A DNA stretch of 64,000 nucleotides from Octopus vulgaris (lineage: Eukaryota). The stretch spans positions 117,924,001 to 117,988,000 of the forward strand of contig OX597818.1 of assembly GCA_951406725.2 (NCBI GenBank). The letters run 5' to 3'. Numbering within the stretch: position 1 is the stretch's first letter; every line of letters begins with the position of its first letter. The notes under the pieces were generated by a model. That model saw nothing but the letters and a program-made list of their open reading frames with translations, was not told the DNA's origin and did not search any database. Below, one piece after another: positions 4,925 through 60,863 of the stretch. A program made the translations under genes and the position numbers.

Positions 4925-5183
4925 TACGCCTAGCTCATTAGGGCCGGTTTCCCAGTTTCCTTGGCGTATAAGTTGCCCACCTGGCCGAGACGCCGGTCCG
5001 TCGCAGGTGAGCTGCAAGAAGCAGCAGGAATGAGTCAGCAGAAGTTTCGCTTTTACCTCCTGCCGGAGTCGCATGGAACTTAGGTGTTTCGCTCGTAAAC
5101 ACACCACATCGCCCGGTCTGAGATTCGAACCCGCAATCCTCCGACCGCGTGTCCGCTGCTCTAACCACTAGGCCAAGTGCCTC
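4925..5183 (-). mobile_element. tRNA-derived SINE (family A)
   Basis: Reverse complement begins GGCACTTGGCCTAGTGGTTAGAGCAGCGG...GGTTCGAATC; homologous to the 33597 copy. Confidence 0.85.
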
Positions 5184-6237: not shown

Positions 6238-7075
6238 AGTAGTTAGTTAGTTAGTTAGTTAATTTGGCTCAAAAGCAAATAGCAAGGCCATGTAAGGGGA
6301 CATGGAGTTAACTACAGGCTGGTGTTCATGTAAAGAGTTCAGGCCACTTGAGGTCAAGGGAGGCTTTGAACAAAGCGGTCGTCGGCATCTTCACCATCTC
6401 GTCTGGCAGCTTGTTCCACGGATCCGCAACCCGGACGGAGAAAGCTGCTCTCCTTCGATTGAGATGAAATTGTCGCAGGTAGAGCTTTTCGGAATGACCC
6501 CGCAGCCGACGCTCTGGAGCAGGAGTGAAGAACAGCTCTTTCGAGAGGTTACACTTTTCGCTTATGATGTTGTGGGCGAGAATGAGATCACCACGGCGGC
6601 GGCGTTTTTCTAGAGAATAAAGGTCGAGCGTCCTCAGCCTTTCTTCATAGGACAAATTTTTGAGACCATGAACCATGCGGGTAGCCAGCTTCTGGACCCT
6701 TTCGAGATGCTGTATGTCTTTGAGGAGATAAGGAGAAGAGGCTTGAATCCCGTACTCCAATATGGGTCTCACCAGCGTGACATAGAGTGGTAGGAATATG
6801 GCTGCTGTGAGCATTCCGAATGACCGTCGAATCAAGAACAGAATTCTGCGTGCTTTGTTGGTAGCATGGACGCACTGGGCCGAAGGCGAAAAGGAGGAAT
6901 CCACCAAGATACCCAGGTCCTTTACCTGATCGGTAAGAGCAATGAAGAAAGTAAATGTAATTCCAACCGGGTTTCAGAAATTTCTTGGAGAAAATGGGAT
7001 CGACACGGGGGCTGGACATGCCCAGAAAATTGTATTATTGGGGGCAGTTAATGTTTTGATATTGATACTTGACCA
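6238..7075 (-). mobile_element. CR1-clade LINE, 5'-truncated 3' end (ORF2 C-terminus 6326-6907)
   Basis: Translation includes LYVTLVRPILEY, LERVQKLATRMV, LSYEERL, RRRRGDLI, RGH and FSVRVADPWNKLP, typical of the CR1 RT C-terminus. A (CTAA)n tail lies at about 6238-6260. Confidence 0.92.
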
Positions 7076-7145
7076 GTGGTTTGCATCAACCACCAGAAAT
7101 GGACAAATATTTACATAAACAGCACTGATAAGAAAAGTTTATAAA

Positions 7146-7350
7146 GTTCTATATTTAAGAGATGAGGAATTATTTACGTTATTTACATTTGACGTATATT
7201 TGTCCTCATCTAGTTTGTTGTTAATACAACGTTTCGGCTAATATACCCTCATCAGGTGCCTTCGGGAAATTTTGACTGATATACCCTCAGCAAGAACCTG
7301 GGTTCTCATTGCTAAGGTATTTATAGATGTTATTATTATTATTATTATTT
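7146..7350 (-). mobile_element. 3' part of the tRNA/(AAT)n/HHR element
   Basis: Reverse complement reads (AAT)n...GGCAC CTGATGA GGGTATATTAGCC GAAAC GTT GTATT...CAAATGTAAATAA; homologous to 8423 and 12620. Confidence 0.8.
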
Positions 7351-8094
7351 TCCTATGGCGGTTTTGCTTATTCTACCTTAAACTTTCTCTTAGGTTATAT
7401 TATTTCACTTGGCTTTTTTTCTGAGTAAGGGAGAATATAATGATTAACGTCACTTATACTTAGTGTTATCATTATACCTAAAACCCTAACTACAGTATAT
7501 AACGTCATAGAGACATATACACATGAAACGCTATGAATATTAATGACATGTATGTTGATAAGAAAATATAAATTAAGATGTACAGAAGTGCATACTTATT
7601 TATGCTCAGTTGAAAAACAAACGTGAAGAGAAATATTTTCTTTTAATTAGTTTTATTATATAAATATAACATTTTATATTATTTACAGTAGGAAAGAAAG
7701 ATAACTTTGTCGTGTAGAAGAACGACTATAAATTCATTAACTAATTTCTTAATTCTAACTAATACATTCACAAACAAATCAAAATAGACTTGTGATTAAC
7801 TTTAGACATGGCATGAAAATTACCGAAGTCTCAAAAGAGTGAGTGTCGTGGAGTTCAGTGACATCCAACAAACACTGAAGTTTTTCCCAAAATCCAGGGT
7901 TTTTATAACTGCTCAACTTGACTAAAAAGTATCGAAATCCATGACAAATATTCTTTACGAAACTTTTAGAATCTTTATATGAGCAGTTATATTAACCAAT
8001 GAAAAAAAACGAAAATAATAATTCGTCGGCAAAAACATTACGTCATATTGCCAATTCACGCCATATTTCAAAATGGCTAAAATGGTTATTGCTA

Positions 8095-8124
8095 CATTAT
8101 TATTGTTATTATTATTATTATCAA

Positions 8125-8196
<72 letters not shown>

Positions 8197-8422
8197 GGTC
8201 AGTGCCTGGAATCGCCATATGTCCGTGGGCAATTATGGAGTGAATTTTAGAGCTTGTACATCTAATATTTTCCTACCCTTCCTTAATACCAGTTCCCATA
8301 TGCTGCTTATATCTGCACTCGGTCTGCTTAGGAGGTTGTTGTGTCCTAGCATATGTGCTGTTTCTTTTAGTTTTCGCATTTTCCGGTGGTGTTCTGTGTC
8401 TAGTATTTTAACTTCTGTTGGA
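8095..8422 (-). mobile_element. PLE endonuclease C-terminal fragment followed by a deleted tRNA-like segment and (AAT)n
   Basis: Minus frame EVKILDTEHHRKMRKLKETAHMLGHNNLLSRP resembles the PLE GIY-YIG C-terminus. It is followed by GGACATATGGCG|ATTCCAGGCACTGACC and (AAT)n. Confidence 0.6.
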
Positions 8423-8524
8423 ATGTGGAGTAGTGGATAAGAGAGCGGACTACTAACCCCAAGATTCTGAGTTCTATTCCAAGCAGTTACCTGAATAATA
8501 GTAATAATAATAATAATAATAATG

Positions 8525-8590
<66 letters not shown>

Positions 8591-8614
8591 TTAATAATAA
8601 TAATAATAATATTA

Positions 8615-8680
<66 letters not shown>

Positions 8681-8830
8681 TCGATAAAATACCTTAGGAA
8701 CGAAAATCCAGTTTCGAAATTTCCCCCAAGGCACCTGATGTAGGCTGGAGAGTATACTTGCTGAAATGTTGTGTTAACAACAAACAAGATGAGGACAGGT
8801 ATCAGTCAAATGTAAATAATGTAAATAAGA
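8423..8830 (+). mobile_element. tRNA-like head + (AAT)n + degenerate HHR element, inverted relative to the adjacent PLE fragment
   Basis: TGGAGTAGTGGATAAGAG..GGACTACTAACCCC..AGTTCTATTCC head, (AAT)n at about 8494-8677, and an HHR-like motif at 8730-8775. Confidence 0.8.
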
Positions 8831-9242
8831 TGAGTTTACTTCAGTACCAATATGATTTGAACGCACAACGTAAAGCCTTGGAAGGAAATGAATCTAAGGA
8901 TTTCGTCTTGCGTGAGGTACCGGTATCGATACCCAGATTCTCCACGTTATCATTCATAGGCGCAGGAGTGGATGTGCACGCTGCAATTGTTTCCGTTCCA
9001 GCACACGATCTCAGATCAGGTCACTTGCTATGCAGGTACATCTCCGGACATATTTCAAAAGTACGATACAAGAGTAAACCATGAGTGATCAATAACGAAA
9101 GAAATATAGTACGATAACATTTTATAACATGGATTTCTTCTTTTCGTCTAATCCGATAAACTAGCTTAATATCTGCATTAATTTAAAGAGTGTTTATAGT
9201 AATGTAGCTATGTAATTTATTTATTTATTAAAACATATCATA

Positions 9243-9407
9243 GGCGCAGGAGTGGCTGTGTGGTAAGTAGCTTGCTAACCAACCTCATGGTTCCGGGTTC
9301 AGTCCCACTGCGTGGTATCTTGGGCAAGTGTCTTCTGCTATAGCCCCGGGCCGACCAATGCCTTGTGAGTGGATTTGGTAGACGGAAACTGAAAGAAGCC
9401 TGTCGTA

Positions 9408-9484
<77 letters not shown>

Positions 9485-9693
9485 TTGTGTGTCTGTGTTT
9501 GTCCTCCTAGCATTGCTTGACAATCGATGCTGGTGTGTTTACGTCCCCGTCACTTAGCAGTTCGGCAAAAGAGACCGAAAGAATAATTACTGGGTTTACA
9601 AAGAATAAGTCCCGGGGTCGATTTGCTCGACTAAAGGCGGTGCTCCAGCATGGCCGCAGTCAAATGACTGGAACAAGTAAAAGAGTAAAAGAG
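9243..9693 (+). mobile_element. tRNA-derived SINE (family B) with internal (TA)n(TG)n
   Basis: TGGCTGTGTGG A-box, GGTTCAGTCC B-box-like motif and AAAAGAGT tail. There are many homologous copies in the window. Confidence 0.9.
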
Positions 9694-9811
9694 TATAAGA
9701 AAAATTATCTACGAATGTTTTATTACGTTATCAAACGATGGTGGTTACATAAGAATGAATTTCCAATGGCTAAATAAATTTATCATACTATATTTCTCTC
9801 GTAATTCATAA

Positions 9812-12118: not shown

Positions 12119-12213
12119 ATGTATATATATATATAAATATATATATATAAATTTGTATAAATATACGTATATATACATATATATTTATATTTATACACAC
12201 ACACGCATATGTA

Positions 12214-12610
12214 GGTGCAGAAGTGGCTGTGTGGCAAGTAGCGTACCTACCAACCATATGGCTGCTGGTTCAGTCCCACTGTGCGGCAACTTGGACAAGT
12301 GTCTACAACTATAGCCTTGTGCCGACCAAAGCCTTGTGAGAGTATTTGGTAGAGGGAAACTGAAAGAAATCCATGTATATATATGCATATATACATGCAT
12401 GTTTGTGTGTCTGTTTTTGTCCCCCTCCACCACCGTTTGACAACAGATGTTGGTGCGTTTATGTTCCTGTAACATAGCGGTTCGGCAAAAAGACCGATAG
12501 AATTAATTTTGGATTTAAAAAGAATAAGAACTGGGGTCAATACTCCGACTACAGTCGGTGCTTCGCCTTGGCCCCAGTTAAACGACAGAAACAAATGAAA
12601 GAATGAAATA
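12214..12610 (+). mobile_element. tRNA-derived SINE (family B)
   Basis: Colinear with the 9243 copy. Confidence 0.88.
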
Positions 12611-12619
12611 ATAAAAGAA

Positions 12620-12709
12620 GACATATGGCGTAGTGGTTAAGAGCGCTGGCTACTAACCCCAAGATTCCGAGCTCGATTCCAGGCAGTGACCTGAATAATA
12701 ATAATAATG

Positions 12710-12751
<42 letters not shown>

Positions 12752-12890
12752 TCGAAAAATACCGAGATTCGAAATTTCCCCAAGACACCTGATGAATGGT
12801 GGAAGGTACATCAGCCGAAACGTGTTAACAACAAACAAGATGTGGTCAAATATCCGTCAAATGCAAATAATGTAAATAATGAAAATAATT
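12620..12890 (+). mobile_element. tRNA-like head + (AAT)n + HHR element
   Basis: GACATATGGCGTAGTGGTTAAGAGCGCTGGCTACTAACCCC..GAGCTCGATTCC, then (AAT)n, then GACAC CTGATGA...CAGCC GAAAC GTGTT at 12784-12826. Confidence 0.82.
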
Positions 12891-33596: not shown

Positions 33597-33912
33597 GTGG
33601 AGGCGCAATGGCACAGTGGTTAGGGCAGCGGACTCGCGGTCGGAGGATCGCGGTTTCGATTCCCGACCGGGCGTTGCGTGTGTATATTGAGTGAAAACAA
33701 CTAAAGTTCCACGATGCTCCGGCAGGGGTTGGTGGCGACCCCTGTTGTACTCTTTCGCCCCAACTTTCTCTCAGTCTTTCTTCCTGTTTCTTGAGTAACG
33801 CTGCGATGGACTGGCGTCCCGTCCAGCTGGGGGGAACTCATACGCCATAGAAACTGAGAGACTGGGCCCATGAGCCTGGCTAGGCTTGAAAAGGGCGCAT
33901 AAATAAATAAAT
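33597..33912 (+). mobile_element. tRNA-derived SINE (family A)
   Basis: TGGCACAGTGG A-box, GGTTTCGATTCC B-box, GCGATGGACTGGCGTCCCGTCCAG domain and (TAAA)n tail. Confidence 0.9.
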
Positions 33913-48008: not shown

Positions 48009-48315
48009 GGAGGAGCACTCCATCAGTTACGACGGAGAGGGTCCCTGCTGATACGACCAACGGAAATTCTAGCATGTGAAATTAACGTGAAAGTGGCTGA
48101 GCACTCCACAGACACGTGTTCCCTTAACGTAGTTCTTAGAGTGAATGAGCATGACACGCAGTTTGACAAAGTTGGCCCTCTGAAATACAGGTACTACTCA
48201 AATTTTTCAGCTGAGTGAAATAAAGTGTCTTGGTCAAGTGCAAAATGCGTCGCCGGAAATTGAACTCGCGACCTTACGATAATGAGATCGATGCCCTCCC
48301 CACTAAGCCACGTGC
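48005..48315 (-). mobile_element. tRNA-derived SINE (another family)
   Basis: Reverse complement begins GCACGTGGCTTAGTGG...GAGTTCAATTTCC. Confidence 0.75.
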
Positions 48316-59641: not shown

Positions 59642-60755
59642 TTAATTGTTTGTCGTAGACCCGTTAAGAAGTGGCTTGTATTTTGTAATAAAGAGATTTT
59701 CTTTACTTATTCGTTGTCTCGAGGTTGTATCGTCCCTAAATTGGTAGAGGGGAAAAATTCTGAAGTTTGGTGTTTTTTTTGTTGGCGCAAGTATCTATGT
59801 GTTGGCTAAAAGCTATTTTTCTGTTTTGGGGAATTTTTATCTGGGATCTGTGCAGGGCCATTCGTTTACGCAAACCATTTTTTGTTTGGCCTATGTACTG
59901 CTCTTGACACCCGGAGCAGGTTAGTGAGTATATTAGGTTCTCCGAAGCACATGTGAAGTTGCTTTTCACTGTAAAACGTTGTCCCTGTTTGAAGGAGAAC
60001 TCAGAACCCTCGATTAGATAGTCGCATATCCCGCAATTGGGTCTTCCATATTTTTTTACTGTCGGCTTCTGTGTTGAAGAGTCAATTCGGGCTTGTGTAA
60101 GGAGACTTTTCATGGATCTAGGCTGTCTTTTGCTTTTTATGATCGTGTGTGTTTGGAGGATTGTGTTCATTCTGTGGTCTTTTTTTAGGAGGGGTATGTT
60201 GTGGAGGATGGTGTCGAAGGCTTCGTTATTGAGAGGGTTGTGTGTGGAGATGTATGGTAAGGCTTTTGGTTGTAAGTTTTTCTTTGATTTGGGATGTCTC
60301 AGTTCCTTGATGTTAAGTTGAAGGGCACGTTGAATGCATTTGTCAATAAGTGAAGGTGGATAGTTCCTGGTGATTAGGGTATCTTTTAGTTCTTGTAGTC
60401 GTGTGTCTATGGTGTTTGCGTTAGAGACTATAGTGCATATCCTTTTTGCTAGATTGAAGGGGATATTCATCCTGGTGTGTCTGGGGTGGCATGAATTGAA
60501 TGGAAGATATTGCTTAGAGTCTGTAGGCTTATAGTATATGTCTGTTTCTATTATATTATTAGCTTTCTTAATGAGGATATCGAGGAAGGGGAGTTGTTGT
60601 TGGCTATATTCCATCGTGAATTGGATGTTTACGTCCAGTCCGTTTAAAATTTTCTGGAATTCTATGAGTTTTTCTATATTTTTATGCCAAAGGATGAAAC
60701 AGTCATCTAGATATCTCTTCCAGTTGTTTTCTATGTAGATGGAGAAAGGGCTGCC
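59642..60755 (-). pseudogene. PLE reverse transcriptase C-terminal half + GIY-YIG endonuclease (one frameshift near 59775)
   Basis: RYLDDCF, LPFLDI, YYKPTD, SCHPRH, linker (Y)GRPNCGIC, NLIYSLTCSGCQEQYIGQT..LRKRMALH; the shifted frame continues KENLFITKYKPLLN. Confidence 0.93.
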
Positions 60756-60863
60756 ATATCAGAGAAAGGCAGAATGCCACTTAAATCTGAACACTACTAT
60801 AGAAATATTCTTTTAAAAAACTTTTCTTCTAATTTTTCTAAATTTAATATTATTTAATCGTTA

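Follow-up and report, generated by a model that had tools for sequence, protein, structure and literature searches.

A Penelope fragment among copies of a tRNA-headed module

The window, which is the whole 64,000-nt stretch of Octopus vulgaris DNA analysed here, contains at 8233-8415 on the minus strand the 5'-truncated C-terminus of an ORF for a reverse transcriptase (RT) with a GIY-YIG endonuclease. Judged from its sequence, this remnant is part of a Penelope-like element (PLE) ORF of the Penelope/Poseidon type, with 92 % identity to the ORF of a full-length genomic copy and 67 % amino acid identity (E 1e-19) to the full-length relative P0025. The initial annotation had looked to an HMM match between 8233-8422 and PLE endonucleases. 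A Pfam search with the 62-aa remnant gave no endonuclease match and the remnant did not align with the Anolis protein; its identity comes instead from homologues and genomic copies.

The stop codon of the minus-strand frame (KFTP*) occupies 8233-8235 and, as the annotation had it, is followed by a tRNA-like head, the gap being 8 nt. Also correct was its reading of this head (8197-8224, minus strand) as that of the free-standing copy at 12620 without the middle: the first 11 and last ~18 nt match, and 45 nt are deleted between two CG dinucleotides. An imperfect palindrome (8213-8237, minus strand) covers the stop codon together with the beginning of the head and marks the 5' limit of most short copies of the family, as judged from the hairpin fold in a natural copy (L017) and from the boundary counts given below. 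Next comes the (AAT)n tract of the direct pseudo-LTR (pLTR; 8096-8195, minus strand). The hammerhead proposed to follow this tract is not there, and what is fused to the PLE tail at this point is head and (AAT)n.

The more complete, inverted copy that had been placed against the 5' break of the fragment is present as a head-(AAT)n-hammerhead region at 8423-8828 on the plus strand. Its head (8423-8493) begins 4 nt inside the full head, is 85 % identical to the 12620 head and scores 11.3 bits against a profile built from the genome's own tRNAs. The (AAT)n tract (8494-8678) is followed by the ORF-start region with a degenerate minimal type I hammerhead (8679-8828, hammerhead at 8730-8775), which stops at the first of the two 3'-end clusters described below and has no tail. 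A third module (7145-7353, minus strand), with a short AAT tract, a hammerhead (7223-7260) and a full 3' tail, lies 741 nt beyond the 8095 copy and is possibly its severed 3' half. The 741 nt between the two AAT tracts (7355-8095) had no match among the loci compared; they were either inserted into the pLTR or are flanking DNA that separates two independent insertions. The surroundings of 7145-8828 show no convincing target duplication.

The free-standing copy on the plus strand consists of a tRNA-like head (12620-12693), with an A box (12626) and a B box (12670) at the exact tRNA spacing (15.0 bits, E 0.001), and of an (AAT)n tract, hammerhead region (12784-12826) and 3' end (12694-12880). 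It begins directly at the 3' end of one copy of another tRNA-headed SINE family, found at 9240-9700 and 12210-12615 (plus strand), and several genomic module copies adjoin SINE tails too. The sequence near 9240 resembles an octopus SINE.

Further tRNA-like heads, at 637-696, 5119-5173, 33608-33665 and 48252-48313 (15-25 bits with the genome tRNA profile), probably belong to other SINE families. The window also holds an unrelated second PLE fragment (59739-60785, minus strand), a Neptune-like 340-aa frame with a CxxC-type linker and a weak GIY-YIG match, and a 215-aa frame (6329-6973, minus strand) that resembles the C-terminal part of a CR1/L2-type LINE ORF and has no Pfam match.

The module as pseudo-LTR

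Of 30 genomic copies chosen solely with a foreign endonuclease protein, 28 have the tRNA-like head behind the stop codon. The same holds for 27 of 29 non-self loci selected by DNA, with a query that contained part of the head, and the remaining two have internal deletions. At the other end, the 3' tail of the module is continuous with the ORF N-terminus in 25 loci, which were cut from 46 matches to a query containing the last 40 nt of the tail. The order of the element is thus [head-(AAT)n-hammerhead-tail]-ORF-[same]. Since the head follows the ORF stop and the tail in turn forms the ORF's own 5' end, the apparent 'SINE' is the pLTR of this family, as the initial annotation had suggested in calling it the PLE's own terminal repeat. 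We regard it as practically certain, and as established, that the tRNA-like head/(AAT)n/hammerhead module is a PLE pLTR.

The annotation had also held that unrelated 5' flanks with no PLE ORF, if found in most copies, would count against it. Among 90 head-anchored copies, taken in genome order from the start of the 519 head matches (two of them, L254 and L255, possibly a single insertion), just 17 run into the ORF; an inverted partial copy lies upstream of 44, and the flanks of the other 29 are unrelated. Taken literally this is the outcome said to count against the reading. The low linkage is no refutation, because the short copies bear PLE hallmarks and carry the same two variants as the coding copies. 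The hallmarks are the inverted partial copy upstream (44/90), two internal 3' ends and no poly(A). Partial-tandem pLTRs, an inverted 5' arm and an optional 30-40-bp tail are all present in the family. Of 120 copies, 107 could be aligned at the 3' end; 59 of these stop within the short 9-nt repeats and another 34 roughly 40 nt beyond them. For the anole element, the available text of PMC11167929 describes a tail and two internal sites of RT start, and the two 3'-end clusters match those two sites. The two linked variants occur at 14:33, 2:5 and 11:16 in short, ORF-linked and endonuclease-selected copies, respectively, with about one third of copies unscored.

Measured against what defines a tRNA-derived SINE, the short copies are not a non-autonomous lineage independent of a coding element, given the shared variants and fixed ORF linkage, and they have neither a LINE-derived 3' end nor poly(A), their 3' end being the PLE ORF start. 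A separate SINE made of head and (AAT)n was also considered and is not indicated; the rest of the module is absent after AAT in 17/90 head-anchored and ~7/30 ORF-linked copies (by eye).

Exact 35-mers from the head and the hammerhead occur 519 and 2,370 times in the genome. Scaled by the fraction of copies that retain them, these counts give a copy number of ~1.2-5.6 x 10^4. Eighteen arbitrary 10-kb stretches contained three modules and no ORF pieces, which extrapolates to ~4.7 x 10^4, with a wide margin, for a genome of 2.8 Gb. The (AAT)n tracts (L081-L110, L166-L195) often carry secondary insertions, including copies of the same family (L081), and these are consistent with ATT as the preferred target of the endonuclease. 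L193 and L194, near-identical copies with common flanks ~108 kb apart, represent a local segmental duplication.

The coding element and its relatives

In longer genomic copies the ORF extends through the endonuclease (Y..C.C...Y.G...R....R..EH pattern) and an RT domain, the latter with a Pfam RVT_1 match (E 1e-9). The copy L061 has a full-length but broken ORF of 2.3 kb. The endonuclease region is 43 % identical to P0161, whose corresponding stretch matches Pfam GIY-YIG, and in an alignment of 54 rows the residues Y, C, Y, G, R, R, E, H and H are invariant. The family itself has no direct endonuclease match in Pfam or NCBIfam and the GIY-YIG assignment is made through these homologues; a PDB sequence search gave weak RT matches only. 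The element thus has the single ORF with RT together with a C-terminal GIY-YIG endonuclease with CCHH motif that is expected of its class.

Relatives were found at 55-69 % identity, and the Anolis protein shares 38-40 % amino acid identity with the genomic copies. In a tree of 21 rows, with P0102 excluded and built from sequences other than the named Repbase references (P0127 being counted as PAc-like on its Anolis label), the family groups with P0047, P0025 and P0001 (support 97/96), and two CxxC-linker elements of the same genome separate from it (100/100). It therefore clusters with Poseidon-type proteins and does not have the Neptune CxxC linker. Family DNA is present in sequencing runs from six organisms, so more than one species carries it. 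A first metagenome scan and a viral scan gave no match. Poseidon-type PLEs with hammerheads are also present in contigs filed as bacterial or archaeal MAGs (L366-L381), a placement that is most likely due to contamination from host animals.

The ORF frame begins with an ATG 34 nt upstream of the hammerhead core and reads on across hammerhead and tail; it is conserved in P0047 (E 1e-5) and P0025. The tail contains a frame-compatible GT..AG of 38-47 nt. An intron, an optional feature near the 5' end of Penelope/Poseidon PLEs, is probably unnecessary here since the unspliced frame is open and conserved, and the splice joint was absent among the 15 of 267 joints inspected in the RNA reads.

Hammerhead

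Family copies have the core, a 6-bp stem II, a palindromic 6-nt stem III and stem I of a minimal type I hammerhead within the pLTR. This conforms to the minimal, dimer-type form that the available text of PMC4209133 describes. The sole common non-CpG variant in the core falls at the free position 7 and exchanges Asp for Glu in the ORF frame. The element's hammerhead is predicted to be self-cleaving. None in the window is intact: that at 8730 has two core changes, that at 12784 has lost 3 nt at the cleavage site and that at 7223-7260 has lost part of stem II. Rfam did not detect a hammerhead in the window (gathering threshold) or in L081 (E-value).

tRNA-like head

A and B boxes are at tRNA spacing in the head; the cloverleaf is lost and the stems are broken. 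RNase P processing of a tRNA-like fold is rejected, the acceptor and D stems being unpaired. Compared with 27 distinct genomic tRNA genes, which cover six isotypes only, the head matches tRNA-Arg genes best (the three best, z 7.6-8.8), with Thr and Cys close. The octopus SINEs OK, OR1 and OR2 are reportedly of Arg or Lys origin. With the genome tRNA profile, 29 of 47 ORF-linked copies score at least 6.7 bits. Rfam (gathering threshold on the window, E-value on L081) and ARAGORN found no tRNA, and relaxed ARAGORN output was noise.

The same profile found no tRNA head in other Poseidon-type elements (0/52 loci, no 3' region above 1.7 bits), the 52 being those of 98 loci that include the ORF end and flank. 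A TATA-like word precedes the hammerhead in three of the six other Poseidon-type loci inspected by eye.

The 5' boundary

Of the 73 head-anchored copies that do not run into the ORF, 70 begin no more than 14 nt upstream of the A box, 23 of them exactly at -14. Anchored on the hammerhead instead, 28 independent loci scored by eye comprise 16 that end at the head start, three within the head, seven in the AAT tract or module and two that reach the ORF. Copies selected by the ORF break ~220 to >1,650 nt upstream, at no fixed point; three long ORF-bearing copies (L149, L160 and L162) end at the head start (by eye).

Of the short copies that could be scored, 6 of 31 have the palindrome loop in reversed orientation, against 0 of 30 ORF-linked copies, and we conclude that cDNA snap-back occurs at the head boundary. 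With snap-back at the palindrome, any end from about -10 to -14 is recorded as -14, and snap-back alone produces the -14 peak. The cDNA hairpin at the boundary is weak (-2.6 kcal/mol). The available text of PMC3846280 describes palindromes at the 5' ends of rotifer PLE pLTRs and a self-priming model, and reports no tRNA there. Given that such palindromes are known, a sharp 5' end is by itself no proof of a Pol III start.

Pol III terminators in the ORF

If a long RNA were made by Pol III, the ORF would be expected to be free of T runs. The L061 ORF (2,327 nt) has no T4 run on the sense strand, against 4.7 expected (P=0.008), and 77.6 kb of aligned copies contain 22 sporadic T4 runs, none in more than three copies, versus 1,162 A4 runs. 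The ORF is poor in T (22 %), and when the codon usage of the family is kept constant the depletion has P=0.10; with third-position frequencies it has P=0.002 for L027, and two shorter pieces alone are not significant. Controls in the same genome were five other PLE and 11 LINE-like fragments, selected visually among 132 long frames, with partial confirmation from Pfam. Observed and expected T4 runs are 14 vs 11.3 in the former and 25 vs 24.2 in the latter; the PLE fragment at 59739-60785, one of the controls, has four. In other organisms, the 78 of 98 Poseidon-type loci with long matches have a median observed/expected ratio of 1.40, and one of the 78 has none, where 1.9 were expected. T5 runs are a weak signal, as 1.0 is expected in the ORF and they are likewise missing from 8 of 32 long controls. 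The absence of T4, in what is one master lineage (n=1), suggests but does not prove that Pol III makes the long RNA.

RNA data

Raw reads from three RNA-seq runs, all of a related organism, and one contig set were mapped to L152. Depth was ~1,000 per strand over the module and 1-15 over the ORF, equal on both strands, with module reads exceeding ORF reads by >100-fold, and 92 % of the reads continue into other sequence. The three runs show no position where many molecules start or end and are uninformative on the promoter. No reads end at the predicted hammerhead cleavage site; for PAc, the available text of PMC11167929 likewise reports no read ends there. There were no RNA runs among the listed carriers of family sequence. 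The commonest differences between the runs and L152 were A>G and T>C, and inverted pLTR pairs would be good substrates for A-to-I editing.

Interpretation

The best explanation, and on balance a probable one, is that a captured Pol III promoter took over from the usual Pol II promoter of the pLTR. For it speak the junctions at both ORF ends, the two 3'-end clusters, the boundary near the A box, the boxes at tRNA spacing and the missing T4 runs with their controls; against it count the RNA-seq runs with no start site, the palindrome and its snap-back, the tRNA-less PLEs that have such palindromes, the T-poor single lineage and the degenerate state of all hammerheads in the window. In a tandem master copy, Pol III would start ~10-14 nt upstream of the A box and could traverse the ORF, as no T4 run would terminate it. 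The PLE protein would nick AT-rich DNA, and reverse transcription would begin internally, at either of two sites just inside the ORF, as in the anole element. A start in the first pLTR would give the ~300-nt SINE-like copies; a start in the second would give ORF-bearing copies, mostly 5'-truncated like that in the window. At the 5' end of the RNA the cDNA would fold back on the 5-bp palindrome to form the inverted arm, and the hammerhead would stay mostly uncleaved in the template RNA. The fullest form of this proposal is possible but doubtful: an autonomous coding retrotransposon in which Pol III transcribes the transposition template as well as the message for translation, the ORF is purged of terminators and the SINE-like copies are a by-product of internal priming. 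That an uncapped RNA would have to be translated counts against the Pol III reading.

It is possible, if doubtful, that the head is instead a passenger from an old SINE insertion into the pLTR, that Pol II makes the long RNA from a pLTR promoter or by read-through, and that the boundary reflects a hairpin-driven RT stop or snap-back. The hairpin and the reversed loops in 6/31 short copies fit this, as do the rotifer palindromes and self-priming model in the available text of PMC3846280, the internal, TATA-less, LINE-like promoter of Drosophila Penelope (available text of PMC2377424) and RNA reads that resemble read-through. However, the hairpin is weak and is inferred to fold more easily at a template end than within an RNA:DNA hybrid, and a passenger head explains neither the lack of T4 runs nor a boundary at the position where a tRNA gene would start.

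It is improbable that the short copies form a SINE lineage of their own that propagates itself, has taken its 3' end from a PLE, is mobilized in trans and was picked up by some PLEs. The 73/90 head-anchored copies with no ORF upstream, the >100-fold excess of module reads and target duplications of 11-12 bp at some free copies (L107, L234) would suit such a SINE, but both variants are found in short and ORF-linked copies in similar ratios (see above) and ORF ends nearly always bear the head. In addition, short copies reach no further than the second RT start site and, by analogy with the anole element, would lack the downstream binding region. Finally, an ordinary LINE-dependent SINE inserted by chance beside a PLE fragment, which the SINE-like look and the lone module at 12620 might suggest, is refuted by the identical junction at 28/30 independent ORF ends and by a tail that encodes the ORF N-terminus, leaving it a negligible likelihood.

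The architecture shows how tens of thousands of apparent tRNA-SINEs can derive from a Penelope element, with no LINE, which affects the annotation of cephalopod repeats. Fixed 5' and 3' boundaries also offer a genome-scale readout of PLE replication, namely of what sets the pLTR ends and how inverted arms form. Were the whole RNA made by Pol III, it would provide a naturally occurring example of a Pol III transcript that is translated and would contradict the expectation that autonomous retrotransposons need Pol II, put forward for LTR elements in the available text of PMC10886601.

Comparison with known systems

In the papers searched, a tRNA-derived head in a PLE pLTR is undescribed, and octopus tRNA-derived SINEs are not linked to PLEs. 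The consensus sequence probably has an entry in Repbase or Dfam all the same, even should its architecture be new. Such a head is not described in the available portions of PMC8557442, PMC6962438 and 10.1101/596502, and that of PMC13282606 does not mention hammerheads.

The tRNA-Arg-like head resembles that of octopus tRNA-derived SINEs (Ohshima and Okada 1994), and the short form may be one of these, the comparison being with their description and not their sequence. Metazoan non-LTR retrozymes (PMC7229834) are also short hammerhead-bearing repeats with proposed mobilization by PLEs; they differ in being head-to-tail tandem monomers with canonical hammerheads and circular RNA, and the portion available reports neither a tRNA head nor ORF homology. 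In Schistosoma SMalpha/Sjalpha (PMC6765202, in part) a Pol III promoter likewise precedes a hammerhead in a repeated unit. Those are non-coding tandem repeats with an actively cleaving ribozyme, whereas the octopus module serves as the terminal repeat of a coding element and has a minimal hammerhead, and the promoter function is putative. The TRIMp3 elements Cassandra, Helenus and Ajax (PMC10886601, in part) share a putative Pol III promoter derived from a small RNA in the terminal repeat, probably acquired via SINE insertion. They are non-autonomous LTR elements, whose author argues that the autonomous partners must use Pol II, and here the carrier is an autonomous PLE.

The closest counterparts, as far as the available texts go, are PAc of Anolis carolinensis (PMC11167929) and D. 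virilis Penelope (PMC2377424), which likewise have a single ORF for RT plus a C-terminal GIY-YIG endonuclease, with pLTRs that include the ORF start. Features shared with Penelope/Poseidon PLEs are a hammerhead overlapping the ORF N-terminus, two internal RT starts, an optional tail, inverted 5' arms and AT-rich targets. The mapped promoter of Penelope differs in being internal, TATA-less and LINE-like. Unlike PAc and Penelope, the octopus element has a pLTR that starts with a tRNA-derived A/B-box head and (AAT)n, an ORF that contains no T4 run and a frame that is open without an intron.
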